A stretch of 64,000 bases of DNA from a virus (taxonomy: Duplodnaviria; Heunggongvirae; Uroviricota; Caudoviricetes): IMG/VR virus record IMGVR_UViG_2721755711_000002. One strand, given 5' to 3'. The position numbers and the translations under genes are program-made. Positions 1 through 24,732 of the stretch are shown one piece after another (the first letter of the stretch is position 1; every line of letters begins with the position of its first letter). Below the pieces are notes generated by a model. The model was not told the origin of the DNA, searched no databases, and saw nothing but the letters and a program-made list of their open reading frames with translations.

Positions 1-1206
1 GTGGAAGGGCGTCGTTCGTTTACCGAATTCATTCGTGAAGGGGTGGGTGTCCATACTTTTAATGGAGAAATTTTTGTCCAGCCTGTATGGGATGCGGAAT
101 CCACGTCATTATTCCGGACGAAATTCAAAACCATCAGCCCGAAGCGTGTCAGTACACCCGGTTATGGTACCGGCGATCGTTTTATGCGTGCCGGGGTGGA
201 AATAAACCGACACGGAAAAGCGCTGGCCTACCATGTTCAGGATGATGACTGGCCCGGCTACGGTGTCAGTAAATGGACACGAATTACGGCAACACTGCCT
301 TCCGGACGACCGGGAATGATCCATGTGTTTCAGCCACAGGAAGACGGGCAGACCCGCGGGGCCAACCAGTTTTATTCTGTAATGGAGCGTCTCAAGATGC
401 TCGACACACTGCAGGCCACGCAACTGCAGTCGGCGGTGGTTCGCGCCATGTATGCCGCCACGATTGAATCCACACTGGATTCGGAAAAAGCGTTTGAATA
501 TATCGCCGGGGTGGGAGATGGAGGTAAAAATCCCCTGAACACCATCATGAAAGGCTACGCGCGTTATTACGCCACCAATACGGTAAAACTGGGCGGGGTC
601 CGTATTCCGCATCTTTACCCGGGAGATTCACTGAATCTGCAGACAGCCCAGAATGCGGATAATGGTTTTTCTGAACTGGAAAAGGCGCTGTTACGTTACA
701 TTGCTGCCGGACTGGGTGTGTCGTATGAGCAGCTTTCCCGGGATTATTCACAGGTCAGTTATTCCAGTGCCAGGGCATCCGCCAATGAGTCGTGGCGGTA
801 TTTTATGGGAAAACGAAAATTTGTGGCCAGTCGCCTGGCGTCACAGATGTTTGCCTGCTGGCTGGAGGAAGCCCTTATTCGTGGTGTGATCCGTCCGCCG
901 AAATCCCGTTTCTCATTCTGGGAGGCTCGTTCCGGGTGGTGCCGTGCCGAGTGGATTGGTGCCGGTCGTATGGCGATTGATGGCCTTAAGGAAGTGCAGG
1001 AAGCGGTGATGCGCATTGAAGGCGGCCTGAGTACATACGAGAAAGAGCTGGCCCTGATGGGGGATGACTATCAGGAGATTTTCCGCCAGCAGCTACGGGA
1101 AACTCAGGAGCGACAGGCTGCCGGTCTTCCGCGTCCGGTCTGGATAAAGGACGCGTTTCAACAGCAGATCCGACAGACAACGGGAGAAAAAGGCGATGCG
1201 CTGTAA
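1..1206 (+). CDS. phage portal protein, lambda gpB-like (5' end cut by window edge)
   Basis: ORF open from base 1; sequence reads like the lambda B portal C-terminal region; followed by C, D, E homologues in lambda order. Confidence 0.8.
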   Translation: MEGRRSFTEFIREGVGVHTFNGEIFVQPVWDAESTSLFRTKFKTISPKRVSTPGYGTGDRFMRAGVEINRHGKALAYHVQDDDWPGYGVSKWTRITATLPSGRPGMIHVFQPQEDGQTRGANQFYSVMERLKMLDTLQATQLQSAVVRAMYAATIESTLDSEKAFEYIAGVGDGGKNPLNTIMKGYARYYATNTVKLGGVRIPHLYPGDSLNLQTAQNADNGFSELEKALLRYIAAGLGVSYEQLSRDYSQVSYSSARASANESWRYFMGKRKFVASRLASQMFACWLEEALIRGVIRPPKSRFSFWEARSGWCRAEWIGAGRMAIDGLKEVQEAVMRIEGGLSTYEKELALMGDDYQEIFRQQLRETQERQAAGLPRPVWIKDAFQQQIRQTTGEKGDAL

Positions 1207-2812: not shown

Positions 2813-2852
2813 GCGGGGATCCGTGATTCAGATAAATCAGGAGACTGAGAAA

Positions 2853-3188: not shown

Positions 3189-3210
3189 TGGTGAAGTGAT
3201 TAACTGAAAA

Positions 3211-3243
3211 AAACGGGTCGTGATGCGGCCCGTTTGTGTTTTT
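3211..3243 (+). terminator. intrinsic terminator-like hairpin with T tract between D and E genes
   Basis: AAACGGGTCG-loop-CGGCCCGTTT followed by TGTGTTTTT. Confidence 0.45.
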
Positions 3244-3258
3244 AAAGGAAAGTCAATT

Positions 3259-4287: not shown

Positions 4288-4337
4288 GGTCAGGCGGGAT
4301 ATTCCCGCCTTTTTCTTTATCGCACAGGAGAGATGTG

Positions 4338-7001: not shown

Positions 7002-7035
7002 ACGCCGCACCGGCGTTTTTTTTCGGAAAAATTTC

Positions 7036-8855: not shown

Positions 8856-8858
8856 GTT

Positions 8859-10091: not shown

Positions 10092-10104
10092 TTAAGGAAA
10101 AATA

Positions 10105-10632
10105 ATGGAACTCGTAAACGTTACGCGTTACTACCCTGAAGACATGCCTTATGGTGAAGGCATTCAGTATTTCCGTAGTGAAGACGGGCAGGATTTTTAT
10201 GAATCACTGGATAAATTCACGAAGAAATACAAGCTGTGCACGCATCCTGAAACCGGCGTTATTTATTCAATGGCGGAAGACGTATCCCGGCTTTATCCGG
10301 CAGGTTTTACCATTGTGGAAGTGGATGAACTGCCGGAAGGTTTTGGCATTGAAGCCAGCTGGTATTACAAAGACGGAGAAGTGCTGCCGGTGCCTGTTGA
10401 TTACTCGCGACTGGCAGAAAAAAAACGCCAGAGCCTGCTGAATGAAGCAAAGGACATCACCTCCGACTGGAAAACCGAGCTGGAGCTGGGCACCATCAGC
10501 GATGATGACAAAGCCCGTCTTACGCAATGGATGGCATATATCAAAGCGGTAAAGGCGCTGGATTTAAGTCAGGTCAGTGATGAATCATCTTATAATGCCA
10601 TTGAGTGGCCAGTACCTCCACAGAACATCTGA
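10105..10632 (+). CDS. tail fibre assembly protein (Tfa, gpG-like)
   Basis: 175 aa directly after fibre gene; conserved C-terminal SYNAIEWPVPP-type end. Confidence 0.75.
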   Translation: MELVNVTRYYPEDMPYGEGIQYFRSEDGQDFYESLDKFTKKYKLCTHPETGVIYSMAEDVSRLYPAGFTIVEVDELPEGFGIEASWYYKDGEVLPVPVDYSRLAEKKRQSLLNEAKDITSDWKTELELGTISDDDKARLTQWMAYIKAVKALDLSQVSDESSYNAIEWPVPPQNI

Positions 10633-10651
10633 AAAAGAAGTTAATCAACAG

Positions 10652-10678
10652 ACCGCCTTTAAGGGCGGTTTTTTTATG
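10652..10678 (+). terminator. intrinsic terminator-like hairpin after tfa
   Basis: ACCGCC-TTTAAG-GGCGGT followed by TTTTTTTA. Confidence 0.5.
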
Positions 10679-10688
10679 GGAGAAATGT

Positions 10689-12164
10689 ATGTCCGGACTA
10701 CATGGTGTGGAAACCATTGAACTGACGACAGGCACGGTGGCCGTGCAGACCGTCTCCACGGCAGTGATTGGCCTCGTGGGGACAGCGCCGGACGCCTCCG
10801 GCGGTGTGTGTGCTTCCGGTACTGCCGGATCATGGTTGTTGAGTTCCGCGCTGGATTTTACAGCGAAAAAAGCCGGGCGGTCCGGCAATGAGATTTCAGT
10901 TGTGGCCAACGGAAGCACGCAGCAAAACGCAGAGACAACCGCGGCTCTGGAGGGAAACACCCTGACAATCACACTGGGCACAGATGAACATGGTGAGACG
11001 AATGCCACAGCGTCACGTGTGAAGGAGGTTGTGAATGCGCTGGAGGATTCACCGGTGATGGCCGATACCAGCATGCTGAATGCAGATTCTGTCGGGGAAG
11101 GAGTGGTATCTCCCTTTACCCTGACGTTGTCCGGCGGTGAGGATGAGGCATTTCCGGTTAATACGCCGGTGGTGGTGGCGGGGGCACTCACGCAGGCCGG
11201 AAAGCTGGGGGCTTCCGGAACGCTGTATCCTGCCCTGCGCGATATTTTTGACCAGACCGGTGCGCTGGTGATTGTGGTACGCGCGGAAAGCAAACCGAAA
11301 GCGAAGGAGACCGAACAGCGTGCTGCAGTGATTAAGGCCATGGAGGCGCTGACGTGGAGTAAAGGCGTAACGGGCTACCAGCCGCGTATTCTTGTCGCCA
11401 CCGGCTACAGCGAGGATGATGGTGTGGCAAAGGCGCTGGAAACGTATGCCGCGAAACTGCGGGCTGTTGCCTATATTGACTCCCCATCAATGGCAACGCC
11501 GCAGGATGTGGTTCAGCGCCGGACGTTATTTGGTGGGCGTGTTGAACTGCTTCGTCCGCGTGTGTCGGTGACGGATGACAGCGGACAAACAGTGTTTCGC
11601 CCGTATTCGGCACGCGCAGCCGGACTACGTGCCCGTATTGATTATGAAAAAGGATGGTGGTGGTCCAAATCAAATCAGGACGTGATGAATATCACCGGTC
11701 TTGAGCAGGCGGATACATTTATTCTCGGGGAGCAGAACTGCACGGCAAACCTGCTGAACATGGAAAACATCTCCACCATTATTCGTCATGACGGTTTTAA
11801 ACACTGGGGTAACCGCCTGTGTACATCTCACAGCCAGTTGCGCTTTGAGTCCGTGCGCCGTACAGCTGATGTGATTGAAGACAGTGTTCAGGAATCCATG
11901 TTGCCTTATGTTGACCGTCCGATTGATCGGGATGTAGCGGACGATATTCTCGGCAGTATTAATGCCTACATGCGCCAGCTTAAAAATCTGGGCGCGATCC
12001 ACGGTGGTAGCGCATGGCTGAACGACGAACTGAATACAGCAGAAACCCTGGCTGCCGGGCAGTTGTATATCGACTATGACTTCGGGCCGAAGTCACCACT
12101 GGAACGCCTGACGCTGCGGACAATGATCAACAATAAACTGGCACGGGAGGAACTGACAGTATGA
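10689..12164 (+). CDS. contractile tail sheath protein, P2 FI-like
   Basis: ATG 10689 after GGGAGA; about 491 aa; followed by tube, chaperone and tape-measure genes. Confidence 0.85.
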   Translation: MSGLHGVETIELTTGTVAVQTVSTAVIGLVGTAPDASGGVCASGTAGSWLLSSALDFTAKKAGRSGNEISVVANGSTQQNAETTAALEGNTLTITLGTDEHGETNATASRVKEVVNALEDSPVMADTSMLNADSVGEGVVSPFTLTLSGGEDEAFPVNTPVVVAGALTQAGKLGASGTLYPALRDIFDQTGALVIVVRAESKPKAKETEQRAAVIKAMEALTWSKGVTGYQPRILVATGYSEDDGVAKALETYAAKLRAVAYIDSPSMATPQDVVQRRTLFGGRVELLRPRVSVTDDSGQTVFRPYSARAAGLRARIDYEKGWWWSKSNQDVMNITGLEQADTFILGEQNCTANLLNMENISTIIRHDGFKHWGNRLCTSHSQLRFESVRRTADVIEDSVQESMLPYVDRPIDRDVADDILGSINAYMRQLKNLGAIHGGSAWLNDELNTAETLAAGQLYIDYDFGPKSPLERLTLRTMINNKLAREELTV

Positions 12165-12679
12165 TGTCATGCGAGAAAAAACTGCTACGGGCATGGGCGC
12201 TCTTTCTGCCGGGTGGTATTCGCCTTCAGGGGGCACATGAGTACACGCCTCCGGCCATCAATATCACGAAGGTGGATATCAAAACCGGTGCGATGGATGC
12301 GCCGGTGTCAGTGGATGACGGTATGGAGGCGCTGACCTGCTCGTTTAAAATTTACGGATACGACGTGGCCATACTGACTCTGCTGGGATTGCAGGCAGGG
12401 ATTTATTCGCCAGAAATTGTTGTCCGTCAGGCGTATCAGGTGGGCGGTGCAACAAGCGGTCTGGTGGAAACCCTTCAGGGAATGATCACCAGTATCACGC
12501 CGGATGCGCGTCCGTCCACCTCGCAGGCAGAAGCAGCGGTGTCGGTGGAAATGTCACTGAGTTATTACCGCCAGGCTGTCGATGGACTGGAGACCATCTG
12601 CATTATTCCGGAGCAGTTTGTACGGCGCATTAACGGTGTGAATGTGCTGTCGGATCTGAAAAAAATTATCCGGGTGTGA
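12161..12679 (+). CDS. tail tube protein, P2 FII-like
   Basis: 172 aa, ATGA overlap with sheath stop. Confidence 0.8.
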   Translation: MMSCEKKLLRAWALFLPGGIRLQGAHEYTPPAINITKVDIKTGAMDAPVSVDDGMEALTCSFKIYGYDVAILTLLGLQAGIYSPEIVVRQAYQVGGATSGLVETLQGMITSITPDARPSTSQAEAAVSVEMSLSYYRQAVDGLETICIIPEQFVRRINGVNVLSDLKKIIRV

Positions 12680-12739
12680 TCTGGAGAAGTGGTCATTCAG
12701 GCGGTTCAGGCCGCCTTTTCTTTTTAAGAGGAAATCAAT

Positions 12740-13042
12740 ATGCCAGAGATAAACAGTATTCCCTGCAGCAGCGTGGAGATTGTGTTATCCGTGCCGTATG
12801 TCACTGCGTCAGGTCAGACAATCTCGCATGTCACCATGCGTGCACCCACCGTCCGCGATCGTCTGTTACATCGCCGGAGTACCAAGCCGGAAGCAGAAGC
12901 CGATCTGGATATGATAGCCGGCCTGTGCGGAATGGATGCGGCGGACATGATGAATATGGAAGCGTGTGATTACCTGTCCCTGGAGCGGCAGTTTAATGTT
13001 TTTTTGCTGCCGCCGGTCAGGCGGAAGAAGACAGCATCCTGA
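12740..13042 (+). CDS. tail assembly chaperone E
   Basis: 100-aa ORF upstream of tape measure, contains T7G slippery run near 3' end. Confidence 0.7.
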   Translation: MPEINSIPCSSVEIVLSVPYVTASGQTISHVTMRAPTVRDRLLHRRSTKPEAEADLDMIAGLCGMDAADMMNMEACDYLSLERQFNVFLLPPVRRKKTAS

Positions 13043-13179
13043 CAGCGATACGGCGCGCCGGTGCCTGGTTCGGGTGGTCTCCCGGAGATGTGATGGCACT
13101 GCCGTATGCAGATTTTGTGTCAATGATGCTGGAGGAATCGGAAGAGAGGCGGCGACGTTATGGCAACGGTGGGCGATAA
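12740..13179 (+). CDS. tail assembly chaperone E+E' (predicted -1 frameshift product)
   Basis: -1 frame is open from 13006 to TAA at 13177-13179 with no upstream ATG; joins E at TTTTTTTG. Confidence 0.55.
12999..13006 (+). promoter_or_regulatory. programmed -1 ribosomal frameshift slippery site (T7 G)
   Basis: T TTT TTG in the E frame (codons GTT TTT TTG); same heptamer type as P2 E/E'. Confidence 0.6.
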
Positions 13180-14815
13180 CCTGAAAGCGAATATCAGGAT
13201 CGGCGGCACGATAGATCCGTCGTGGAAAAAATCGGTTGATGGACTGAAGCACGGATTATCAGGGGCAACGCAGGAAGTGGCTCGCCTGACTCGCCAGCAG
13301 GATGTACTGAAACGAAAAATTCAGGCTGGCGTACTGGCAGGGCAGGATATTACTGAACTGCGAAAGCAGTATGAAAAGCTGGGCAAAAAAATTCATGATG
13401 CCACCGGAGAGCAGGATAAATTTAACCGTAAGCTGGCACGTGCGGAACGTCTGGAACGCTGGAAAGGGCGTGGAAAGACCGCTCTGAAAGCGGGGTTAGG
13501 GCTTTCGGTCGGGGCAGGACTGACACTGGCAGGCGCTGCCGGTGCAGCACTTAGCCGGAACAGTGAAACTGCAGAGCGGGCAGGGATAGCCCGGAGTTAC
13601 GGTGTGGATTATGAGACGTATGCAGCGTGGGATTCGCTGGGTAAGCAGATGGGGCTGAACGGGGAAAACTTCGGGGATCTGTTTGAGGAGTACCGTAACA
13701 AGGTTTTTGATGATGATAATGGCGCATCGGATAAAGGTGCCATACAGCAGGTCTTCGGGGCGCTGGGGCTGAAAACCGGGGTGATGGCGGGAAAAAACAA
13801 CCAGGAGCAGGTTGAATTTCTTTTTGACCGATTGCTGCAGGTGAAGGATGAACAAAAGGCTGCCGGGATGGCGGATGCATTGTTTGGTGGTGAGGGTAAT
13901 AAGATCCTGACCTGGATACGTCTGTCAGGAAAAACTTACCGGGAGCTTATTGAGGAGCAGAAGCGCTATAACCTGGTGACCAGGGAAGGGGCGGATGGTG
14001 CCGTCCGGGGACATATCGCCGTCTCAAACCTCACCGGTGTTCTGGGTTCGTCCATTGATGAAATCTGTGGACAGCTGGGGAAAGAGCTGGCACCGAATAT
14101 TCAGCAGGTCACGGACGACCTGGCGGACTGGTTTAAAAACGGCGGGCTGGAAAAAATCAATACATTTATCAGAGAGGGCGCGCTGCCGATGTTGATCAAG
14201 GTGACGGCCTGGGCGTGGAATTTTGGAAAAGTCATTGCCGGGCTCACTGAAAAGGCCATCGAGTGGGGGCTGGCTGAAGATCCACGGAGTGACCGGCGTG
14301 AGGTGCTGGAATATCTGGCAAAAACAGGCTCACCAGAGCTGGCAAGGGCAGTGGCGAAGAGGAACGGGCAGGATAAATGGTTTGATGATCAGCTTAAAAA
14401 AAATCCCGATCTGACGAAGCAGGTTGTGAAGGCGTATACAGACACACGCGGTTTCCTGAGTGATGACGATAAAAAATTTGAGGCGTCCCTCGAGCCTTTT
14501 CTGGGGCCAGAAGACGATCCGGACTTTGACGGATGGGAAAAGAAAGCGCTTGATGTCCTCGCGAAGTATGACACCCCACCCGCTACAAAACAGGGGCAGG
14601 AAAAAACGGATCCTCTTTCTGCGCTTCACTACGTTCCGGGCAGTATCAGCCAGGTGGAAGTAAAACCCACGTATCAGATACGGGCTGAATTTAACCTCAC
14701 CCAGAAGCCCGGCGAGGATGCCGGACAGCTGGCAGACAGGGTGACGAAAAATCTGGGTGATATTGATTTTGGCCAGCGGGCCAGCATGACCGACAGTTAT
14801 GCATTCTGGGGGTGA
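13160..14815 (+). CDS. tail tape measure protein
   Basis: 551 aa, helical/charged, directly after chaperone pair. Confidence 0.7.
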   Translation: MATVGDNLKANIRIGGTIDPSWKKSVDGLKHGLSGATQEVARLTRQQDVLKRKIQAGVLAGQDITELRKQYEKLGKKIHDATGEQDKFNRKLARAERLERWKGRGKTALKAGLGLSVGAGLTLAGAAGAALSRNSETAERAGIARSYGVDYETYAAWDSLGKQMGLNGENFGDLFEEYRNKVFDDDNGASDKGAIQQVFGALGLKTGVMAGKNNQEQVEFLFDRLLQVKDEQKAAGMADALFGGEGNKILTWIRLSGKTYRELIEEQKRYNLVTREGADGAVRGHIAVSNLTGVLGSSIDEICGQLGKELAPNIQQVTDDLADWFKNGGLEKINTFIREGALPMLIKVTAWAWNFGKVIAGLTEKAIEWGLAEDPRSDRREVLEYLAKTGSPELARAVAKRNGQDKWFDDQLKKNPDLTKQVVKAYTDTRGFLSDDDKKFEASLEPFLGPEDDPDFDGWEKKALDVLAKYDTPPATKQGQEKTDPLSALHYVPGSISQVEVKPTYQIRAEFNLTQKPGEDAGQLADRVTKNLGDIDFGQRASMTDSYAFWG

Positions 14816-15306
14816 TGATGGTGGATTTTGTTGGCTTTGGCGCAAACATGATTGAGCGCAAGGCATGGGACAGGATTGGTTCATTAACCGATGTGGCCTC
14901 GCGGGTCATGCTGTCGTTTGGTGAGTTTGAGTTCAGTATTGATTCAGCGGCGTATAACGCCATGAAGCGCACCATGGAATGGCGATGGGATGAGCAGCAG
15001 TTAATCGGAAAAAAGGATCTGCTGCAGTATACCGGTAAGGGGGCCAGAACGATAAGCCTTGAAGGGATGGTTCATGCGGGATTTCGTGACGGTGTGGGGA
15101 TGGATGCCCTTGATACGCTGGTTCAGATGGTGGATAAAAATCCTGCGCCGCATCTGCTGGTTTCCGGGACGGGGGATGTGATGGGGTATTTTGTTGTAAC
15201 CGCCTATTCAGATAACACCACGTCCTTTCTTCCCGGCGGTGCGCCGAAAAACAAAACGTTCACACTGGAGCTGAAATACTATGGCGAAAAACTGGCGGAC
15301 CACTGA
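14812..15306 (+). CDS. tail protein U-like
   Basis: 164 aa between tape measure and X/D as in P2. Confidence 0.7.
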   Translation: MMMVDFVGFGANMIERKAWDRIGSLTDVASRVMLSFGEFEFSIDSAAYNAMKRTMEWRWDEQQLIGKKDLLQYTGKGARTISLEGMVHAGFRDGVGMDALDTLVQMVDKNPAPHLLVSGTGDVMGYFVVTAYSDNTTSFLPGGAPKNKTFTLELKYYGEKLADH

Positions 15307-15499
15307 CGGCGATATGCTGGATGATATCTGTCAGAGACACTACGGCAGCGCCGGACTCAACCAGTCACTGGCGGCGGTACTGGAGGCTAATCCCGGGCTG
15401 GCTGATCTTGGTCCGGTGTATCCGTCCGGGGTGGAAATCGTGTTACCGGACTGGACATATGAGCCGGAAGAGAAGGAGACGTTTCAGTTATGGGACTGA
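15281..15499 (+). CDS. tail protein X-like
   Basis: 72 aa, MAKNWRTTDGDMLDDICQRHYG, resembles phage tail X family. Confidence 0.65.
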   Translation: MAKNWRTTDGDMLDDICQRHYGSAGLNQSLAAVLEANPGLADLGPVYPSGVEIVLPDWTYEPEEKETFQLWD

Positions 15500-16566
15500 A
15501 TGAATATCAGCCGGATTTCAGTCTGACGGTGGAAGGCGAGGATATCACGAAAGCAATAAAACGCGGACTGGCTGAACTGCGTTATACCGATAATGGTGCT
15601 GCCACAAAGCGGGCTGATGAGTTAATGATAACGCTGTTCAGTGAAACGCTGGCATTGCCACCGAAAGGCGCAGTATTAACGCTGGGGCTGGGGTTTAACG
15701 GACGTCTGGTGAATAAGGGTAGCTTTACTGTCTGTCAGGTGGCAAGCGGTGGCCCTCCCCGCCGGATCACCATTTATGCCACAGCAGCCCCCATGAATGC
15801 GTCCAGGCATGGTGCAGATGTGACTGCACTGAAAACCCGCGCCTTCAGCGATGTCACGCTGGGTGACCTGGTAAAAACGATCGCCACTGAAAATAATCTG
15901 GTGGCGCGGGTATCTCCGGCACTGGAGAAAATTCGTATTCCGTGGGTGATGCAGTCATCTGAGTCGGATGCGTCCCTGCTTTCCCGGCTTGCAGGGATGT
16001 ACGGTGCCACCAGTAAACCGATGAACGGTTACTGGTTATTTCTGGAGTATGGTGCGTCGCAGAGTACCGGAGGCAGGGATGCCCCTGTGATGACCATCAC
16101 ACCGGATATGGTGTCAGACTGGGATTACCGGGAGGGCGATCGGCAGGGGGCATCCGGAGGCGGAAAAGGGGGAAAGGTTGGTGTCAGGTACTTTACTCCG
16201 TCTGATGGTCGCACGCGTGAACTTAAAGTGGATGTGGAGTCCACAGACAAGCGGCATCCCTTCACCCAGCCAGACCAGAGCACGGCAGAACATTGTGCAC
16301 AGTCGAAGGTAAAGCGGGTGCAGAAAGCGGGGCGTCAGATGACGATAACGCTGCCCTGCCGACCGGTATTGCTGAAAGCGGGGGCGGAAGTGCGCTTTAT
16401 CACACGGGGCTTCGGGGTACGGGAGGACCATAACTGGCAGGCAGAGTCAGTGGAATTTTCGTTGTCACCGGTGCAGGGATTTTCGCTGAATCTGTCGCTG
16501 GCCACGGATATTTCTGCAAAGGGGAAAGCCAGTGGCAAGAAAAAAGGCGTCAATTATTTTGGTTAA
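15490..16566 (+). CDS. tail protein D-like (baseplate hub)
   Basis: 358 aa after X; P2 D position. Confidence 0.75.
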   Translation: MGLNEYQPDFSLTVEGEDITKAIKRGLAELRYTDNGAATKRADELMITLFSETLALPPKGAVLTLGLGFNGRLVNKGSFTVCQVASGGPPRRITIYATAAPMNASRHGADVTALKTRAFSDVTLGDLVKTIATENNLVARVSPALEKIRIPWVMQSSESDASLLSRLAGMYGATSKPMNGYWLFLEYGASQSTGGRDAPVMTITPDMVSDWDYREGDRQGASGGGKGGKVGVRYFTPSDGRTRELKVDVESTDKRHPFTQPDQSTAEHCAQSKVKRVQKAGRQMTITLPCRPVLLKAGAEVRFITRGFGVREDHNWQAESVEFSLSPVQGFSLNLSLATDISAKGKASGKKKGVNYFG

Positions 16567-16590
16567 TGTTTTCTGAATCAGGAAATAAAA

Positions 16591-17226
16591 ATGTCTGTAT
16601 TAATTTCGGGTGTGCTGACGGATGGCGCGGGACTCCCCATGTCCGGATACCATATTATTCTGAAAGCCAGACAGAATACATCCGCAGTGGTCATGAGAAC
16701 GGTGGCTACAGTGATGACAGGTCCGGCAGGAGAATATGCTTTTGAAGCTCAGACCGGAAAATATGACGTTTATCTTCGGTCGTGTATTGAAAGGGAATAC
16801 TGTGTCGGTGATATTTCGGTTTACGACGACTCAAAGCCCGGCACGCTGAACGACTTTTTGACCGCTCTCGACGAAGGCGACCTCAAACCCGACGTGGTGA
16901 AACGCTTTGAGGAAATGGTGGCGCAGGCGCAGCAGGGTGCCGAAACTGCAACAGAAAGCGAACGACAGGCAGGGCAACATGCAGACGCTGCCGCCCGGGC
17001 AAAAGAAGATGTAAAAAAACTGGTGGAAGGTGTTCAGCAGAACGCCGACGCGGTTGCGGAGGGTAAACAACAGGCCGAAACTCTGGTCTCACAGGTTGAG
17101 GATACCGCCGCAGAGGTCAGGCAGGATGCTGAAGCCGCGAAAAAGGCCGCATCTGATGCAGAGCATGTCAGGGAGGATATTGACACTGCGTTATCTGCGA
17201 CACTGAAAACGGCGAATCGCCTGTAA
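16591..17226 (+). CDS. side tail fibre N-terminal domain protein (truncated Stf)
   Basis: MSVLISGVLTDGAG..ILKARQNTS..YDDSKPGTLNDFL recalls lambda Stf N-terminus; ORF stops at centre of inverted repeat. Confidence 0.7.
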   Translation: MSVLISGVLTDGAGLPMSGYHIILKARQNTSAVVMRTVATVMTGPAGEYAFEAQTGKYDVYLRSCIEREYCVGDISVYDDSKPGTLNDFLTALDEGDLKPDVVKRFEEMVAQAQQGAETATESERQAGQHADAAARAKEDVKKLVEGVQQNADAVAEGKQQAETLVSQVEDTAAEVRQDAEAAKKAASDAEHVREDIDTALSATLKTANRL

Positions 17227-17856
17227 ACGATTCGCCGTTTTCAGTGTCGCAGATAACGCAGTATCAATATCTGCTCTGGCCTGCTCTGCACCGGATGCGG
17301 CCTTTTTCGCGGCTTCAGCATCCTGCCTGACCTCCGCGGCGGTATCCTCAACCCGTGAGGCCAGATTTTCGGCCTGTTGTTTACCCTCCGCAACCGCGTC
17401 GGCGTTCTGCTGAACACCTTCCGCCAGTTTTTTTACCTCTTCTTTTGCCCGGGCGGCAGCGTCTGCATGTTGCCCTGCCTGTCGTTCACTTTCTGTTGCA
17501 GTTTCCGCGCTCTGCTGCGCCTGCGCCACCATTTCCTCAAAACGTTTCACCACGTCGGGCTTGAGGTCGCCTTCATCGGGGGCGGTCAGAAAATCATTCA
17601 GTGTGCCGGGCTTTGAGTCGTCGTATACAGCAATATCTCCAACACAGTACTCGTCGCGCCAGCCCTGCTTCAGATATACGCAGTATTTTCCGGTCTGCGC
17701 CTCAAAACAGTACTCGCCACAGTTTCCTGTCACCACGTCGGCAACTGTGCGCATCACCACCTCTGAGGTGTTTACCCGGGATTTCAGAATTATGTGGCAT
17801 CCGGACATGGGGATGCCTGCGCCATCAATCAGCGCACCTGATATCACTACAGACAT
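17191..17856 (-). CDS. side tail fibre N-terminal domain protein, inverted paralogue (truncated)
   Basis: 221 aa, near-identical to 16591-17226 product over C-terminal 130 aa; 3' ends overlap by 36 bp. Confidence 0.7.
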   Translation of the reverse strand: MSVVISGALIDGAGIPMSGCHIILKSRVNTSEVVMRTVADVVTGNCGEYCFEAQTGKYCVYLKQGWRDEYCVGDIAVYDDSKPGTLNDFLTAPDEGDLKPDVVKRFEEMVAQAQQSAETATESERQAGQHADAAARAKEEVKKLAEGVQQNADAVAEGKQQAENLASRVEDTAAEVRQDAEAAKKAASGAEQARADIDTALSATLKTANRLQAIRRFQCRR

Positions 17857-17879
17857 AGTTTTTCTCGCGATAAATTAAA

Positions 17880-18428
17880 TCAGGAAGAGGCTTCCGGAGA
17901 GACGGGCCATTCAATGGCGTTATATGAGGCTTTATCAGTGATGGTGCTGAAATCCATCGCCTGCAGCGATTTCGCGTAAATGCGGTACGCTTTCAGCTTT
18001 TCCCTGTCTTCGTCGCTGATTAATCCCAGCAGCAGGTCTTTTTCCCATTCGCTGGTCATGATACTGACCTGTTTTAACAGGGCATCACGCTCGTCTTCCG
18101 CTTTAAGTTTGTAGTCGAAAACAAATTCATCATTGCGGTAAAACCAGTAGCCTGATGCTTCAATGCGACGATTAGCGGTAATATCCGGCAACTCAATCAC
18201 GCTTTTATTTTCCGGGCAGATTGAGGTGATGTCTTTTCCGACCCAGACCACTTCGCCAGTTTTAACATAAATAACTTTCAGGGTGTCTGGTAGAAATTTT
18301 TCCTGGGCTTCGTGCCATTCCTGTCCATCATCTGAGAACAGCCACAATAAAAATTTATGCTGTCGCGCCAGCTGGTATTGCTCAATTGTTTTAGGGTTTT
18401 GTACCGTAATATTTTTTAAGTGCATCAT
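17880..18428 (-). CDS. tail fibre assembly protein (Tfa)
   Basis: 182 aa; C-terminus SYNAIEWPVSP matches the other Tfa in the window. Confidence 0.75.
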   Translation of the reverse strand: MMHLKNITVQNPKTIEQYQLARQHKFLLWLFSDDGQEWHEAQEKFLPDTLKVIYVKTGEVVWVGKDITSICPENKSVIELPDITANRRIEASGYWFYRNDEFVFDYKLKAEDERDALLKQVSIMTSEWEKDLLLGLISDEDREKLKAYRIYAKSLQAMDFSTITDKASYNAIEWPVSPEASS

Positions 18429-18430
18429 GA

Positions 18431-19924
18431 TTACAAACTCGCTACATTTCTCCAGACGCCATTAATCAGAACCTGCACCGGGCGTGCATTGGCCCAGTTC
18501 ACACTTTCACCGCCATCAACACCACTCAGTAAATGACCTGATGGCGCATTTCCCCCGCGTCCAATACCAATGGCGCTTCCCAGACGTACATCCTGCACGC
18601 CGCCTGTTTTGGTCTGATAGCGGGCATCAAAGTTTCCGTAGTTTGATGGAGTTATCTGCCCATTTACAGCGAATGTGACGCTATCGTCTGTATTTCTCTG
18701 ACTGTAGAAATGCCAGCCGGAATCATCACCAAGTTCTGCAACTACAGGTCTGGATGGATTACCCCATAAATTAAACCCTACGTTCTTCGTGGAGCTGTTG
18801 GAGCTGGATAGCGTGAATTTTTTACTATCCCCGGCCTGAACGTTTTTAAAAGCAATAGCAACTCCATTCTGAAAGCGAAATACGCGCTGATTATTAGCAT
18901 AAACATCCAGAATGCCATCGCCGTTTTGTTTTATACCGGTGTCGTTATCTCCGAGAGTAATGGAATTACCGCCCAGTGCGTTATCCGTACCAAGCGCCAG
19001 CCCACCATCAATTTTGGCCCCGTGGCTGACAGATATAGCACCTGTTCTCAGATTTATAGCAAATGGCCTTAATGGGCCAATATCGCCATTCTCGCCCTGA
19101 CCTTCACTGGTAGGGATAAGGTGCAGGCACTCTTCCGAACGACGAAAAATCAGGCCAAAAGCGTCGTTGAAAATCCTCAGCGCATTAACACCACGGATTT
19201 TCAGCTCCCCGGTCATCAAATCACCAGATTTTTTTACATATCGCAGATCAAAATCTGAATAGATATTGCCGGGGTTTATCACGCTGAAATAGCTTTTCTC
19301 GTTATCAAGAAGGCAAATCAAAGGAATACCTTTAATGATATCATTCGCTACCAGCTCGGACTTGTTCCCCTTATAAAGTGGGAACGTACCAAGAACCTTT
19401 CCGCCTAGTGTTAGTTGAAGTGTCGCCGCGTTGGTATTGTTCTGAACGGGGAAAACGATAATCGGGGTTCGTAGTGTCCAATCTGTACCTTCATTAACAA
19501 AAAACGTCGAGGGAAGCTCCAGCGTCAGTGTGTTTGCAGTGCCACCAGCAACACCCGCAATATAATGACCGCTCTGAAGCTGCGCTATCTGTACGAAATA
19601 GTTTTCCGAACCACGCGTGGCAAAGTTAGCCACAACGTCATTAAGGGACCAACCTTTCGCGGTTGTTCCTTCCTGCCCACGAATGACTTTCAGCACATCG
19701 CCGCTTACTGATACCAGGTGACAAATCTCAAATGCAGACTCTTTATTATCGGTAAGCGTAATTTTTGCATAGACGCGTTGCCCGTTCGATTTATTTTCAA
19801 AATCGGCAGAAAGCAATTTTGCAAATTTAGCTCCCGTGCCCGGCATCACCGGAATATCAGTCTGAATCGTCGTGATATCGCCAGCCAGTGCTGAAACAAC
19901 GTTATTGCCAAATCCAAGAATCAT
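18431..19924 (-). CDS. tail fibre protein with P2 H-like C-terminal domain
   Basis: 497 aa; C-terminal 170 aa almost identical to 8859-10091 product. Confidence 0.8.
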   Translation of the reverse strand: MILGFGNNVVSALAGDITTIQTDIPVMPGTGAKFAKLLSADFENKSNGQRVYAKITLTDNKESAFEICHLVSVSGDVLKVIRGQEGTTAKGWSLNDVVANFATRGSENYFVQIAQLQSGHYIAGVAGGTANTLTLELPSTFFVNEGTDWTLRTPIIVFPVQNNTNAATLQLTLGGKVLGTFPLYKGNKSELVANDIIKGIPLICLLDNEKSYFSVINPGNIYSDFDLRYVKKSGDLMTGELKIRGVNALRIFNDAFGLIFRRSEECLHLIPTSEGQGENGDIGPLRPFAINLRTGAISVSHGAKIDGGLALGTDNALGGNSITLGDNDTGIKQNGDGILDVYANNQRVFRFQNGVAIAFKNVQAGDSKKFTLSSSNSSTKNVGFNLWGNPSRPVVAELGDDSGWHFYSQRNTDDSVTFAVNGQITPSNYGNFDARYQTKTGGVQDVRLGSAIGIGRGGNAPSGHLLSGVDGGESVNWANARPVQVLINGVWRNVASL

Positions 19925-20547
19925 TTTTGAATCACCGTTGTTGCATAGGAATAAATAAAAGGGAGTTTTACATATTTCTGGTCAATGGCATCTTTCAGAA
20001 AATAGCCTATACCATCACCATATTCTGGTATCTGAATAGAAAAAACACTGTCCGATACAGTCACACTCACATCAAAAGTGTGCTGCAACGGCGGGTCTAT
20101 CCCGTTTTTTCCGTGAATGAACCGCGCCACACGTCGCTTTAACCAGTCAATGCAGAAGTGCGAGCCGTCAGCCTTATAAAAATTCCACGTCAATATTCGC
20201 TTGAAATAATCATCAGGAACATACGATGCCTGCCCCGGAACGTAATTCCGCATTGCCGCATACGGGATCGTATTGTATTCAATGGTATCGTATGCACCGC
20301 GTGCAATAGCCTCCTCGGAAACCTGTAGTAAAGGCCTTTCAACGCCATAAATCCCGAGTGCAATCCAGTCCAGCAATTGCCCGGTTATTGATTCTGATGT
20401 CCAGCATGGCAATGCCAGATTGTTGAGTGAATCGAGGTATTCCTGAGCAATTTCATTGTATGCATCAAAGAACGCAACAACATTCGGATCATCTCTGTAC
20501 TGCACAAATGGATAAGCAGGGAGAATTTTCTCAGTCAGATATTGCAT
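19921..20547 (-). CDS. tail/baseplate protein (gpI / Mu gp48 position)
   Basis: about 208 aa from MQYLTEKILPAYP; between J-like and fibre genes. Confidence 0.55.
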   Translation of the reverse strand: MQYLTEKILPAYPFVQYRDDPNVVAFFDAYNEIAQEYLDSLNNLALPCWTSESITGQLLDWIALGIYGVERPLLQVSEEAIARGAYDTIEYNTIPYAAMRNYVPGQASYVPDDYFKRILTWNFYKADGSHFCIDWLKRRVARFIHGKNGIDPPLQHTFDVSVTVSDSVFSIQIPEYGDGIGYFLKDAIDQKYVKLPFIYSYATTVIQK

Positions 20548-21757
20548 ACTTGTTGACCTGAACCTGTGATGCCACCGTTGAAAAATAGGAATAGGTATCG
20601 CCATAAACCAGGCTTGTGTCTTTCGCCGGAAGAACAATATGGCCGTTAATACCAATGCTCACACTGATTGTTGAGATCAACGTCGCATCAACCAGCAACC
20701 TGACGGAACTGGTAAAAATATCCTGGATACGCAGAAGATTTATCGGGTGTCCGACTTCAATTGAATTGATGTAATCAGCAACGTTTTGCTGCACAGCCAT
20801 AGCAATACCCGCCGGATCAACATAATCATCAGACACCGTGTTCCAGGTGATTAGCACCATGACGTTTTGTGATGACGGGATAACGAACGGTACCTGATAA
20901 ACGTCCGGCGAAACGGTTATTGAAACCGTGCGTTTTTCCACTGCCGCACCGGATGGATTGCTAACATCGTTGGTCAGTTTCGAAATGTCCGGTACAGATT
21001 TGTAAATCGCATAAGCCACATCATACGGATCACCGCCACCAACAACCGCAACCCATTTCCCCAGCGACGACTGCCGGAAAGAAATCAGGTTTTCGCGCAC
21101 ACCGCTTACTGATTTGAGCATCGCTTTAAAGCAATCCGGTGTTCCCTGCACACCAAACATGCCAGACTCCATGACTTCGGCGCGGTAAGATGCCCACGTC
21201 TGCTCCTCCTGACCTGGCATCCCTGCGGTAAGGTTCGTGCATTTTACAGGCTGGTCTTTGGGTACTGATGTAATAACCTGCGTCACGGTCCCTTCCGGTA
21301 CAGCCCATGAGCCTGACGTTGTGGCCACACAGTAAACTGGCTCAGTCTGCCCGCTTTCCGGTACCACAGTATCGCGGGAAACCGCATACTGGTAGTTACC
21401 GTCTCCAACCACAAATCCTTTAGGGATACCAAACCCCGGCAACGCTTCAAACACCACGTATACCGCCGTATTTGTACTTAATCCCTTCTGTGCTCCATAT
21501 ATGTTTCCGAGTTGCATCAGTAACGGAATATTCGCGCCGTATGGGCTTACGGAGTTAATAAGATCAACCCGCGCCTGGTCTATTAATGCCAGCGCCCCTA
21601 CTGCCGTGCTGGCAAGGTCTGTAATAAGTCCTGCCGGAAGGTTGGCTGTATATCCAGGTACTTTTTCAGCAACTCTGGTGATAAGATTTGCGAGCAAATC
21701 ATTGGGTGGCGTAGGCTGCGCACCCGCACTGGTCATAGTAATTGGTATTTCAGACAT
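20531..21757 (-). CDS. baseplate J-like protein (gp47 family)
   Basis: 408 aa; size and position typical of J/gp47 wedge protein. Confidence 0.65.
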   Translation of the reverse strand: MSEIPITMTSAGAQPTPPNDLLANLITRVAEKVPGYTANLPAGLITDLASTAVGALALIDQARVDLINSVSPYGANIPLLMQLGNIYGAQKGLSTNTAVYVVFEALPGFGIPKGFVVGDGNYQYAVSRDTVVPESGQTEPVYCVATTSGSWAVPEGTVTQVITSVPKDQPVKCTNLTAGMPGQEEQTWASYRAEVMESGMFGVQGTPDCFKAMLKSVSGVRENLISFRQSSLGKWVAVVGGGDPYDVAYAIYKSVPDISKLTNDVSNPSGAAVEKRTVSITVSPDVYQVPFVIPSSQNVMVLITWNTVSDDYVDPAGIAMAVQQNVADYINSIEVGHPINLLRIQDIFTSSVRLLVDATLISTISVSIGINGHIVLPAKDTSLVYGDTYSYFSTVASQVQVNKYAISD

Positions 21758-21771
21758 ATCTACCCCATAAA

Positions 21772-21797
21772 AAAACCGCCGAAGCGGTTTTAAGTTA
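21772..21797 (-). terminator. intrinsic terminator of moron gene
   Basis: minus strand: AACCGC-TTCG-GCGGTT then TTTTTTTATGG. Confidence 0.6.
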
Positions 21798-21799
21798 AC

Positions 21800-22546
21800 T
21801 TATTTTGCCTGTTTCATTTTTTCCACCCTCTCAAGCATTCTTTTTACATTTGATGGAGGATAGTTAAATTCATCGCCGTCTCCAAAAGAAATTTTTATAG
21901 GCTTCATTTTCATAACCAATTCTTTCAGAACCGCTTTACCAATTTCAGTTTTTGGTACTATAAAACCATTTCCATACAAGCATGATTTATAAGTTTTATA
22001 ATATTCACCATTAATCAAAATTGGTGGATACTCTAATGGCCCATCAATTTGCACTGAATTATCGCAAAATCCATTGCCTTTAGATTTTGAAGCAATAAAA
22101 ATAGCTATTGTCCCATCATCGCCATACATCAGGAATCTATTTTTACTAACACCTTCCAGTGGAGGTAATATTATCAGTGCACCATCAATATACCATTCAG
22201 CGTAATTCTTTGATTCATTGATTATGTTCTCATTAATTTCATTTAAAGATGAATATTCCCTGAATGCATTAGAATACCATTGTCGAACACATGATTCTGT
22301 TTTGCACTTCTCTCTTTCATTCCACAAGTCTGAAACAATTTTTCTAAAAGCTTTCTTATCAGCGCTCTCTAACTTTACTTTTTGATATAAAGAATTTAAT
22401 TTATCATCAAGTTCAGATAATTCACTGTTGCTGCAAATTAACTTTTCAGAATATGATTTAGCTTTCGAGCAATCAAAAGATACCGCATTCGCAGTTCCGA
22501 TTTGTAATAAAAAAGCAAACACTACAAATAATTTAAACTTAATCAT
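21800..22546 (-). CDS. secreted protein with DUF1311/LprI-like N-terminal domain (moron)
   Basis: signal peptide MIKFKLFVVFAFLLQIGTANA; FDCSKAKSYSEKLIC..LDDKLNSLYQ; strong AAGGAG RBS; AT-rich. Confidence 0.6.
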   Translation of the reverse strand: MIKFKLFVVFAFLLQIGTANAVSFDCSKAKSYSEKLICSNSELSELDDKLNSLYQKVKLESADKKAFRKIVSDLWNEREKCKTESCVRQWYSNAFREYSSLNEINENIINESKNYAEWYIDGALIILPPLEGVSKNRFLMYGDDGTIAIFIASKSKGNGFCDNSVQIDGPLEYPPILINGEYYKTYKSCLYGNGFIVPKTEIGKAVLKELVMKMKPIKISFGDGDEFNYPPSNVKRMLERVEKMKQAK

Positions 22547-22670
22547 CCGTAATCTCCTTAAAAACAGGAGATTAAATTTTACCCATTCTTAATGTCCGTT
22601 CAAGTTCATACTTTACAACCGCGCCCAGTTGAGTATGATTAAGCGCATGAGGCGTCGAAACCTCTTCTCA

Positions 22671-22746
22671 GTGCGGTCACAACCAACCCCGTTAGTGTTG
22701 GATTTTTTATGCCTGCTATTTAGTGATGGCACAATGTGCGGTCACA
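22671..22746 (+). promoter_or_regulatory. pair of 11-bp direct repeats GTGCGGTCACA upstream of ant (possible operator sites)
   Basis: copies at 22671-22681 and 22736-22746 flank a hairpin plus T tract. Confidence 0.35.
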
Positions 22747-22878
22747 TCCCCGAACAATGTCGGGAGGGCGACGAATACAACACCCGAAAGGGGAATAAGT
22801 CCGCGGCCTCACTGAGCCGTTTCGAACCTCCCGGCTCCACTCCGATAGTGGAAATTCGAAAAAATCAGTGAGGTCGTT

Positions 22879-23448
22879 ATGACAATACAATTAATCCCCG
22901 TTTTCAACGGAACTATCTCAAACGAAACCGCCCTACTCTGTAATGCTCGTGATCTGCACGCTTTTCTTGGTGTAGGTAAGGTTTTCGCAGCCTGGATTAC
23001 ATCCCGCATCGCAGAATACGGATTTACAGAAAATCAAGATTACATTTTGCTTTCCAAAACAGGAAAGCAATCGTTAGGAGGCAGAGGAGGACATAACCGC
23101 AAGGACTACCACCTCACCCTAGACACCGCCAAAGAACTGGCAATGGTCGAGCGCAACGAAAAAGGACGCCAGATCCGCCGATACTTCATCGAGTGCGAGA
23201 AGAAGCTGCGCGAAGATACCACCAGCACACAATCCCCTCTGAATGTTGACATCATCATGCGCGTCAGAAACGGCTCGGTTACCCACATTGAGCACCACAA
23301 ATCAGGCTCAGTTATCACCACAGAATGGGCAATTCACTTACTACGCAAAAGTGGATGGATTGTCATGCCACGCGATGAACTTCTTAACACGCCACTGGCC
23401 CAATTGATGCCCGAAAACTTGCCTCAAACCGGAACCTGCGTCCGGTAA
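22879..23448 (+). CDS. phage antirepressor (AntA/AntB N-terminal domain family)
   Basis: ARDLHAFLGV..AAWITSRIAEYGFTENQDYIL..RRYFIECEKKL pattern recalled from Ant family; opposite strand to tail operon. Confidence 0.65.
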   Translation: MTIQLIPVFNGTISNETALLCNARDLHAFLGVGKVFAAWITSRIAEYGFTENQDYILLSKTGKQSLGGRGGHNRKDYHLTLDTAKELAMVERNEKGRQIRRYFIECEKKLREDTTSTQSPLNVDIIMRVRNGSVTHIEHHKSGSVITTEWAIHLLRKSGWIVMPRDELLNTPLAQLMPENLPQTGTCVR

Positions 23449-23771
23449 CTGGTTCCGTTAAAAAACACAACATCGATGTTATAGGTGGGGTTCTCTGCCC
23501 CATCTACTTTTGAAATTGCCAGCGATGCAAAATACCCGGCATACTGTTGCTGAACCATGTTCACATAGTAGTCCGGGTAAATCTGCTGCACGATGCACTG
23601 CTGCGCTGGAATGCCGTAATTCGCGTAAAACGGCGACTCCCCCAACCCCAGCTTTAACGTCTGAATGAGCGTCGTCAGCCAGCCGTAGGAGAAATCACCG
23701 TTGGTGTCAGATTCTACTGCAACCCATTTTTTGTTGCCGTTCGCGTCGTTGACGCGGCCCCATGTTCTCAT
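23424..23771 (-). CDS. hypothetical protein at baseplate W/gp46 position
   Basis: about 116 aa from MRTWGRV; no family recognised. Confidence 0.4.
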   Translation of the reverse strand: MRTWGRVNDANGNKKWVAVESDTNGDFSYGWLTTLIQTLKLGLGESPFYANYGIPAQQCIVQQIYPDYYVNMVQQQYAGYFASLAISKVDGAENPTYNIDVVFFNGTSYRTQVPV

Positions 23772-23778
23772 CGCGCCC

Positions 23779-23877
23779 TCACCACCATCGGATCTGACCA
23801 ACAAAATAACCAGACGCAAGAATCAGAAAGACCAACCAAATAAGCAAAAACTTCCAGGTGGATAATTTTTCAGCCAT
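23779..23877 (-). CDS. small hydrophobic peptide (32 aa, ends RWW)
   Basis: MAEKLSTWKFLLIWLVFLILASGYFVGQIRWW with GGAGA RBS, 7 nt upstream of next ATG; not in ORF track (too short). Confidence 0.3.
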   Translation of the reverse strand: MAEKLSTWKFLLIWLVFLILASGYFVGQIRWW

Positions 23878-23943
23878 AACTCGAATCTCCCGAATCAGTT
23901 TGCTAAAATCAAACACGACTTCTCCTTGCCTTATTCAAGGTCA

Positions 23944-23979
23944 GAAACAAAAAGCCCCGACTGTTTGCCCAGTCGGGGC
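23944..23979 (-). terminator. intrinsic terminator after baseplate spike gene
   Basis: minus strand GCCCCGACTG-loop-CAGTCGGGGC followed by TTTTTGTTT. Confidence 0.6.
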
Positions 23980-24018
23980 TTTCGCTTTATGGATAGAATT
24001 TAAAGTGAAATTAACCGG

Positions 24019-24732
24019 TTAACCCGGATTTGGTTGCTTCGACGTGATCGTGCTGCCGCCGCTTTGAACGCCAGTCACATCGTGGCTGTGGCCGCTGGCG
24101 CTCACGCCGTTGATAACTGCATCTTTCTCGACCTTAAGAGGGCCAATCAGCGAAGCGGTTGTATCCTTCATCTGGGCTTTGTCCTGGACGATCGGTCCGT
24201 TGAGGTGAATTTTCCCGTTCAGGAAAATATCTTCGGCCTCAAGGTAAACAGCTTTCGACTTTTGCCTGATTTCTTCCGGAGCCACCGTTACCGAGCTACT
24301 GCCGTCCTCTGTTTTGAGGATCGCGCCATCCGGACCGTACAAAACGATTTTTTGCGGATCTTCGTCGGACCAGTCCTTGTTTGCCAGTGGCACGAAAAAC
24401 AGGGGAGTGAGCGACATCGAGTAAGAGAGCGTCGCCATACCAGTTCCCAACCCGGACACACCGCGCAGGGATACATCAGCGGCAATTGTTACTCCTCGAT
24501 CGCCCGGCTGTATCGGGTAACGGATATACGGGAATGTGGCGACAGGGATTGTTATCTGCGGAAAGTTGATCCCCTCGGGGAGCATATCAAACTGAACTGT
24601 CACTATCTGCCCGCTGACATCGACAACATGGCAGGGCAATTCACGGCCTTTAAGCTCGGCTTGCTGGTTACCAGAACTGGTCATCATCTCCGACAGCGTT
24701 CGGAGAAACGGTATTTTTTGAGCGTTTGACAT
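24019..24732 (-). CDS. baseplate spike protein (V / Mu gp45-like)
   Basis: 237 aa, position after hub gene; Gly/Ser-rich C-terminus. Confidence 0.55.
   Translation of the reverse strand: MSNAQKIPFLRTLSEMMTSSGNQQAELKGRELPCHVVDVSGQIVTVQFDMLPEGINFPQITIPVATFPYIRYPIQPGDRGVTIAADVSLRGVSGLGTGMATLSYSMSLTPLFFVPLANKDWSDEDPQKIVLYGPDGAILKTEDGSSSVTVAPEEIRQKSKAVYLEAEDIFLNGKIHLNGPIVQDKAQMKDTTASLIGPLKVEKDAVINGVSASGHSHDVTGVQSGGSTITSKQPNPG

Follow-up and report, generated by a model that had tools for sequence, protein, structure and literature searches.

Inverted repeats within tail-fibre genes are found in the G segment of Mu (Gin), the C segment of P1 (Cin), and the P segment of e14 (PinE). The tail-fibre coding sequences of these switches are convergent and comprise one constant N-terminal part and two alternative C-terminal-plus-tfa cassettes between 26-bp crossover sites, with a serine invertase gene adjacent.

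Long inverted repeats that have a short spacer and form a single-stranded DNA hairpin are represented by the engineered palindromes of the Leach laboratory, the arms of which are identical (PMC4245961, PMC3315005). SbcCD+ E. coli does not survive a perfect palindrome of 460 bp (Azeroglu et al., PMC4245961). Interrupted palindromes are cleaved and then repaired in E. coli (PMC4245961; see also PMC3315005), and rec+ E. coli tolerates them (PMC4245961, PMC3315005). Long palindromes in bacteria have so far been studied mainly with engineered constructs.

Nearly precise excision of Tn10 was reportedly described by Weston-Hafer and Berg as a palindrome-associated deletion in E. coli. Such events are said to use direct repeats of several bp, to lose the distal part of the inverted repeat, and to leave a short palindromic remnant with endpoints set by the geometry of the stem. 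Homologous recombination between prophages causes chromosomal inversions and deletions in E. coli; its substrates are paralogous prophage tail genes and its products are full-length hybrids. Repeat mis-joins in bacterial assemblies have their breakpoints at the edge of a multi-copy block, and typically pass through the repeat (A-R-D).

The junction described here lies in a 64-kb stretch of viral DNA, called the window, and joins two side-tail-fibre genes, stf1 and stf2. It resembles the Gin, Cin, and PinE switches in its inverted, convergent tail-fibre sequences but has neither an invertase nor a crossover site, and two N-terminal parts stand face to face with nothing between them. It shares the long inverted repeat, short spacer, and hairpin of the engineered palindromes, whereas its arms are diverged paralogues (84% identical overall, 92% across the inner 425 nt). 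Its endpoints can be likened to those of a Tn10-type remnant, but here the remnant measures 1.27 kb, with 0-1 nt of microhomology at the join. In contrast to the hybrids of prophage recombination, two N-terminal halves are joined on opposite strands. Judged from the closest relatives, the breakpoints probably lie at a repeat edge, as those of repeat mis-joins do, although the repeat itself is missing and one side is flipped, an outcome that is unusual for standard assemblers. The reading favoured here, with a probability of roughly 0.5, is a two-locus assembly mis-join at a repeat boundary. The feature is a breakpoint scar, of rearrangement or of assembly, without sign of function or selection.

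Structure of the quasi-palindrome

The features around the junction are collected in Table 1. The products of both stf genes match PF08400 (phage_tail_N) in Pfam over residues 1-133 of 134, with E values of 9.5e-57 for stf1 and 3.4e-62 for stf2, and both genes keep their native ribosome-binding context. The two convergent Stf N-terminal-domain ORFs of the preliminary description are both present. Its statement that both stop at the centre of symmetry applies to stf1 (TAA at 17224-17226), but stf2 runs 30 nt beyond the axis.

Table 1. Features of the window around the stf1-stf2 junction
Feature	Coordinates	Strand	Remarks
Tape-measure gene	13160-14815		Left tail operon, before gpU
gpU	14812-15306		Left tail operon
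gpX	15281-15499		Left tail operon, before gpD-like gene
gpD-like tail/late-control gene	15490-16566	+	Weak PF05954 match; last intact gene of left tail operon
Left arm of quasi-palindrome	16584-17219		Contains perfect 35-bp inner stem 17185-17219
stf1, truncated side-tail-fibre gene	16591-17226	+	211 aa; left prophage, P2-type contractile tail
stf2, truncated side-tail-fibre gene	17191-17856	-	221 aa; right phiP27-type prophage
Centre of symmetry (junction)	17220-17227		Axis 17223/17224
Right arm of quasi-palindrome	17228-17863		Contains perfect 35-bp inner stem 17228-17262
Tfa, tail-fibre assembly gene	17880-18428	-	Caudo_TAP PF02413, E 2.4e-22
Fibre gene	18431-19924	-	497 aa; ahead of Tfa on - strand
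Baseplate J gene	20531-21757	-	PF04865; ahead of Tfa on - strand

The quasi-palindrome has 636 bp per arm and a total length of 1.27 kb. A repeat search returned inverted arms at 16795-17219 and 17228-17652 (425 nt, 92% complementary, 8 nt apart) and outer extensions at 16584-16721 and 17726-17863 (73%). When the arms are mirrored on the axis, they align without gaps from each ATG to the axis and mismatch at 104 of 633 nt. Most of the mismatches lie within 230 nt of the gene starts, and third codon positions account for most of them. Those nearest the axis are at distances 1, 3, and 4, and are followed by 35 perfect pairs. The exact inner complementarity reported earlier is real, but it measures 35 rather than 32 bp per side, and one of the four pairs in the supposedly asymmetric 8-bp core (17222/17225) is in fact complementary. 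As single-stranded DNA, the central 200 nt (17124-17323) fold into a single hairpin of -111.5 kcal/mol with an 8-nt loop (z = -24 against shuffles). The inverted repeat is genuine and well above chance expectation. A promoter and terminator scan found nothing specific at the palindrome centre and is uninformative.

Invertase switches classically occur in tail-fibre genes, and CGTTTAT (stf nt 628-634) is also found in the e14 pix site TTCTCCCAAACCAACGTTTATGAAAA. A Gin/Pin/Hin-type switch, whether remnant or variant, is contradicted by the lack of a serine recombinase gene in the 64 kb (PinE tblastn, best E 0.34). Only 8 nt separate the arms, so there is no invertible segment, and what is inverted is the constant N-terminal half of each gene rather than alternative C-terminal halves. 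Neither the junction nor native stf contains a hix/gix/pix-like site with more than 14/26 matches, whereas shuffling the whole window still yields a best match of 16-20/26, which places these scans at chance level. The earlier view that this is no Gin/Pin switch agrees with both searches. A one-locus fold-back sequencing artefact is ruled out by the diverged arms and the unmirrored flanks, which are unrelated operons (gpD versus Tfa). A switch remnant or a fold-back is extremely improbable.

The two prophages

The left 17 kb of the window are a prophage late region in which lambda-type head genes are combined with a contractile tail of P2 type; the tail genes follow the order sheath, tube, tape measure, gpU, gpX, gpD, and stf. 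The gpU-gpX-gpD order is collinear with annotated genes in STEC316, PapRG-04-4, A10, and L015. Over its whole length the left tail module has 98.5-98.8% nucleotide identity to L015 and L017, and it matches the ompW-inserted prophage of E. coli PapRG-04-4 and the draft contig DABZOS010000103 at the same level (98.5-98.8%).

A phiP27-type prophage is collinear with the window from 17224 as far as 42000 at least, and the window ends inside its early region. Compared with the prophage that E. coli F2_407_2_2 carries at Rac/uspF, positions 17221-24100 have 99.9% nucleotide identity, and positions 17224-42000 (24.8 kb) have 99.0% over 94% of the stretch. The genes stf1 and stf2 belong to two different prophages. 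The placement of each stf as the last gene of a separate tail operon was confirmed by the upstream genes, which are gpD-like on the left and a Caudo_TAP Tfa on the right. Neither host DNA nor Ns are present in the 64-kb window, long ORFs are intact throughout, and the sequence appears to be of high quality at base level.

Intact relatives and the missing C-terminal halves

Full-length stf relatives have 474-490 aa (F2_407_2_2, STEC316, phiP27, 2013C-3264, PapRG-04-4). In these, stf is followed by a DUF4376 gene (~190 aa) at the extreme end of the prophage. The relatives read ...TANRL/SELADEGEE... across residue 211 and continue to the full 474-490 aa, with the translated motif SELADEGEEAQQESR in the C-terminal part. 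The native sequence of both genes in the window ends at that same residue (...TLKTANRL / SELADEGEE...). A tblastn search with the relatives' proteins gave two matches covering residues 1-211 (1-214 in the right copy, a few codons past the axis), and neither the C-terminal half of stf nor DUF4376 was found anywhere in the window. The full-length genes that the preliminary description proposed to seek by alignment to related genomes do exist, and the absence of both C-terminal halves, on which its tail-to-tail fusion reading was built, is borne out, since the C-terminal part of the relatives' stf and DUF4376 both lack a counterpart here.

The stf1 product has 96% amino acid identity to P0001, and stf1 is identical to the copy in L015 at 606 of 633 nt. 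In stf2, 632 of 633 nt are identical to the 474-aa stf of F2_407_2_2. The stf-DUF4376 cassette is nearly identical between unrelated prophages.

The junction at nucleotide level

The join consists of stf1[1..633] and the reverse complement of stf2[1..633]. The native sequence of stf1 reaches nt 633 at 17223 and that of stf2 reaches nt 633 at 17224, in both cases codon L211. The microhomology is 0-1 nt, with at most one ambiguous shared T. The window reads ...AAT CGC CTG / TAA ACG ATT... at this point, while a codon-level alignment of native alleles gives AAT CGT TTA TCA GAG and AAT CGC CTG TCA GAG. The CCTG of the core is the end of the stf1 codons R210-L211 (CGC CTG), and its TAAA comes from the same codons in stf2 (CGT TTA), read as reverse complement. 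The CGC CTG allele is seen directly in E. coli 2013C-3264. For the Rac-locus stf of PapRG-04-4 (its stf2), it was deduced from the mismatches at nt 630, 631, and 633 to the CGT TTA copy in the ompW prophage (its stf1). The CGT TTA allele is carried by F2_407_2_2, L015, and stf1 of PapRG-04-4.

The "8-bp asymmetric core" is thus a natural synonymous dimorphism at R210-L211, viewed from each side, and the perfect inner stem is ordinary conservation, likewise found between intact alleles. As ordinary allelic features, the core and the stem are uninformative about the junction. The preliminary description had treated the core and the exact inner 32 bp as junction features, and this does not hold, because CGC CTG and CGT TTA are both natural alleles. 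For the same reason, the core is rejected as filler or inserted DNA. Homogenisation of the centre after its formation (quasi-palindrome correction) has no evidence in its favour, as intact alleles share the 35-bp identity.

Further mechanisms were rejected. Fold-back priming through the CTG/CAG or TCAG...CTGA mini-repeats by the break predicts, when worked out by hand, CGCCTGATAAACG or a junction that keeps TCAGAGCTGGCTGA, unlike the observed CGCCTGTAAACG. Symmetric trimming by RecBCD guided by Chi was rejected, as inspection by eye shows no GCTGGTGG in the vicinity of the break; the closest sequence resembling Chi, ACTGGTGG, lies ~200 nt off and has no mirror counterpart. No restriction or type III site fits at the break by eye. 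Homologous recombination between the prophages would give full-length hybrids in any orientation, never an N/N* mirror junction. Annealing-driven processes (template switching, single-strand annealing, chimeric library extension) would yield N-C hybrids.

The join itself supplies the TAA stop codon of stf1, which is the Leu211 codon of stf2 (TTA) read as its reverse complement, and the last 10 codons of the stf2 ORF are antisense of stf1. Both are by-products of the join. This bears on the proposal that the short ORFs are complete, selected genes for N-terminal-domain-only fibres and that the palindrome is a bidirectional terminator or regulatory hairpin. An intact PF08400 domain, the native ribosome-binding context of both ORFs, and the very stable hairpin would suit such genes. 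The proposal is nevertheless highly improbable: the proteins and the junction occur in no other searched genome, the stop codons and the ten antisense-derived codons of stf2 come from the join, the centre consists of ordinary alleles without palindrome-specific evolution, and the terminator scan gave nothing specific there. Even when taken together, functional short genes, an invertase remnant, and a fold-back have very little probability.

Position of the break relative to the shared repeat

The final differences between the arms of the window are at nt 630, 631, and 633. The closest relatives of the left and right arms, L015 and F2_407_2_2, are identical at nt 586-967, where 967 is the end of the L015 contig and bounds the comparison; from nt 634, they are therefore identical for at least 334 nt. 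Between nt 634 and about nt 1900, DUF4376 included, the two cassettes of PapRG-04-4 share 98-100% identity. The break in the window immediately follows the last polymorphic site and, judged from these alignments, precedes a block that is probably identical in the two copies. This repeat boundary is read from the closest relatives of each arm. A break at the edge of a block common to the closest relatives is a break at a branch point of the assembly graph.

Draft assemblies routinely break within stf. Nearly all protein-database homologues of stf are labelled "partial", and the 187-kb draft contig LCVH01000230.1 terminates at nt 630 of its stf, 3 nt from the break in the window. The preliminary description held that the divergence of the outer arms speaks against a fold-back artefact of assembly. 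It does so for a one-locus fold-back, as do the unrelated flanks, but not for every assembly artefact: with both breakpoints at the same homologous nt 633, at a probable repeat edge, arm divergence argues only against the one-locus case.

Genome layout and uniqueness of the junction

Three complete genomes, PapRG-04-4, 52F4, and STEC276, contain both prophage types. In all three, one stf is in an ompW-inserted prophage and the other in a prophage at the Rac/uspF locus, and the two genes lie 143-148 kb from each other as direct repeats on one strand. A further site, zinT in strain A10, is occupied by relatives of the left prophage. Starting from the direct-repeat layout, the join in the window needs an inversion, the reciprocal product of which is a near-perfect R*/R palindrome with zero spacer. 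A real deletion would require convergent and adjacent prophages, an arrangement found in 0/3 of the complete genomes that carry both prophage types.

The junction 22-mer was not found in GTDB representative genomes, IMG/VR, or JGI metagenomes. None of 5,426 complete E. coli genomes aligns across the junction, a weak negative since only 4/5,426 carry the inner allele, and synthetic mirror junctions built from other allele combinations also had no match in the complete E. coli genomes. Exact protein look-up gave no record of the truncated stf1 and stf2 proteins, or of the exact gpD and tape-measure proteins. The short stf genes inside long contigs (P0060, P0061, P0107, P0111) are frameshifts or ordinary deletions, not mirror junctions.

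Origin of the junction

A join between the same nucleotide of two genes on opposite strands has only three routes: a hairpin, a cut at the same site followed by ligation, or the abutment of contig ends. The paralogous second-tail-fibre genes are each located at the distal end of a different prophage. In the last of the three routes, the shared repeat (the C-terminal half of stf plus DUF4376, ~1.3-1.9 kb) would have been dropped during assembly or finishing, and the two unique contig ends flanking it would then have been abutted, one of them flipped. The native sequence past 17223/17224 would read TCAGAGCTGGCTGATGAAGG... on both sides, and we infer that the join would be absent from the cell's DNA.

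A mis-join of this type is favoured by the zero-overlap join at the same homologous nucleotide of both genes, and by the break after the last polymorphic site, at a graph branch point. The frequent breakage of stf in drafts, LCVH01000230.1 included, the uniqueness of the junction in the searched collections, and the undecayed arms (the right one is 632/633 identical to an intact allele) point the same way. So does the direct-repeat layout, as the reciprocal palindrome is expected to be lethal with SbcCD. On the other side, assemblers seldom emit junctions that no read or k-mer supports. De Bruijn contigs usually extend k-1 bases into a repeat, past its edge, so a blunt abutment implies an unusual scaffolding or finishing step. 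The window has no Ns, its base-level quality is high, and its long ORFs are intact. The left-prophage relatives also occur at zinT (A10), and the window holds no host DNA to fix the layout.

A junction that is present in the cell, made by hairpin-guided or same-site-cleavage head-on fusion, is possible at somewhat less than even odds. The hairpin route would be a recent, real deletion between convergent and nearby prophages; it is the main rival of the mis-join, though less probable. The stf-DUF4376 cassettes would form a long inverted repeat (A-R-X-R*-B*), and the copies would pair on a single-stranded template. A 4-nt mismatch bubble marks the base of the perfectly matched part of the stem; replication would step across there, so that R-X-R* would be lost and a 1.27-kb quasi-palindrome with an 8-nt loop would remain. 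Intrastrand pairing of inverted copies is among the few processes that align the same homologous nucleotide, and it explains mirror-exact breakpoints at the edge of perfect identity. The product still folds into one long hairpin, and rec+ E. coli tolerates interrupted palindromes (PMC4245961, PMC3315005). In addition, the contig is continuous and of high quality, standard assemblers rarely output read-unsupported junctions, and deletions linked to palindromes or hairpins are established E. coli biology. Yet all three genomes with both prophages show direct repeats ~145 kb apart, and the microhomology is just 0-1 nt where slippage deletions normally need at least 4-9 bp. The stem runs for 35 perfect bp below the bubble, leaving the hairpin base poorly defined, and no second example was found in the searched collections.

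The remaining route, in which both stf genes were cut at the same sequence and the ends rejoined without homology, is unlikely. The cutter would be a sequence-specific nuclease, gyrase, or another enzyme, and the outcome would be an inversion of the ~145-kb interval or a join of phage genomes that were excised or replicating. The identical breakpoints and the blunt, homology-free join would follow from a shared cut site, and this route is compatible with the direct repeats of PapRG-04-4, 52F4, and STEC276. However, no nuclease or recombinase site was recognised at the break (restriction and Chi sites by eye; hix/gix/pix tested). E. coli is not known to have classical NHEJ, which also counts against this event. 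The reciprocal junction of such an inversion, a near-perfect palindrome, should be lethal in the presence of SbcCD (PMC4245961).

Significance

The junction is no new regulatory or phase-variation system under either reading. If the favoured mis-join is correct, the surroundings of 17223/17224 are unusable for gene content, prophage adjacency, and synteny. About 1.3-1.9 kb per prophage, namely the C-terminal half of stf and DUF4376, would be wrong, and the orientation of a large interval may be wrong too.

A junction present in the cell would be a rare natural case of mirror-exact fusion between diverged inverted paralogues. It would have produced a 1.27-kb quasi-palindrome in the chromosome of a wild enterobacterium and disabled the second tail fibre of each prophage. 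The palindrome would have formed without homology or microhomology in a species lacking classical NHEJ. It would be expected to serve as a natural SbcCD substrate, and would bear on the origin and persistence of long palindromes in bacteria. The stf-DUF4376 cassette, moving almost unchanged between prophage backbones, is a recurrent source of both assembly breaks and recombination.

Composition of the two prophages

The left prophage, as compared with Escherichia coli A10, is a hybrid of two kinds of module: a P2-type contractile tail and baseplate are joined to head genes of lambda type (portal, S49 protease, decoration, major capsid, and FI). In the right prophage, homology places genes for an LprI-family lysozyme inhibitor, an AntA/AntB antirepressor, and an anti-CBASS protein of the Acb1 family amid the structural genes, and the last part of the window lies in the early region. 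In a draft contig closely related to the left tail module (L015), the H/G region (fibre/tfa), of P2 type, has 96% identity to the C-terminal part of the right prophage's 497-aa fibre gene with the adjoining tfa. The left prophage also matches this fibre C-terminal part and tfa in parts of its fibre region, at 82-89% identity and in inverted orientation. The two prophages in the window thus share a second inverted homology.

Coordinates of prophage features and of the compared loci, with the basis of gene assignment
Feature	Location	Basis
Left prophage	window 1-17226	
Left fibre region, matching parts	window 9495-10404	
Right fibre C-terminal part and tfa	window 17896-19216	
LprI-family, AntA/AntB, and Acb1-family genes	window ~21800-23448 and elsewhere in 17224-42000	homology to annotated relatives
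Right early region: HigB-family toxin, DicB cell-division inhibitor, Rha regulator, RecE-type exonuclease	window 59000-64000	matches to relatives' annotated genes
H/G region of draft contig, matching part	L015 2710-4030	
Cassette of E. coli 2013C-3264	L016 5416-7411	
e14 pix site (K-12)	L018 4604-4630	
stf to DUF4376, E. coli A10	L020 23770-26803	
Terminal stf of LCVH01000230.1	L021 3001-3630	

The breakpoint and damaged cassettes

The 187-kb draft contig LCVH01000230.1 (GCA_001637635.1) terminates at nt 630 of the side-tail-fibre gene stf, 3 nt from the breakpoint in the window, and so assemblies appear to break at the dimorphic nucleotide cluster found there. The heptamer CGTTTAT is common to stf nt 628-634, at the breakpoint, and the crossover site pix of e14, TTCTCCCAAACCAACGTTTATGAAAA. 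The full pix site matches the breakpoint sequence only at chance level, and the shared heptamer is thus taken as a coincidence.

The 147-aa E. coli protein P0060, from a 537-kb contig, comprises stf residues ~1-111 fused in frame to the C-terminal end of DUF4376. Two short stretches of similar sequence, EEMVAQAQ and AMVQAQVDRN, apparently bounded the deletion that produced it. Such a deletion would be a natural route to cassette destruction that differs from the junction in the window. In A10, stf is annotated as a partial pseudogene, and an unannotated ~2.2 kb separates it from DUF4376, which points to insertion or degradation there.

Distribution of the stf-DUF4376 cassette

Three unrelated prophage backbones carry the cassette, each at its extreme end (2013C-3264 and the relatives' loci L001, L002, L003, L017, and L019). 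These are a P2-type tail backbone, a phiP27-type backbone, and a lambdoid prophage adjoining ssrA, where the cassette follows that prophage's own stf/tfa. Since its distal halves are near-identical between backbones, stf-DUF4376 behaves as would a 'second fibre' cassette that is mobile or undergoes frequent conversion.
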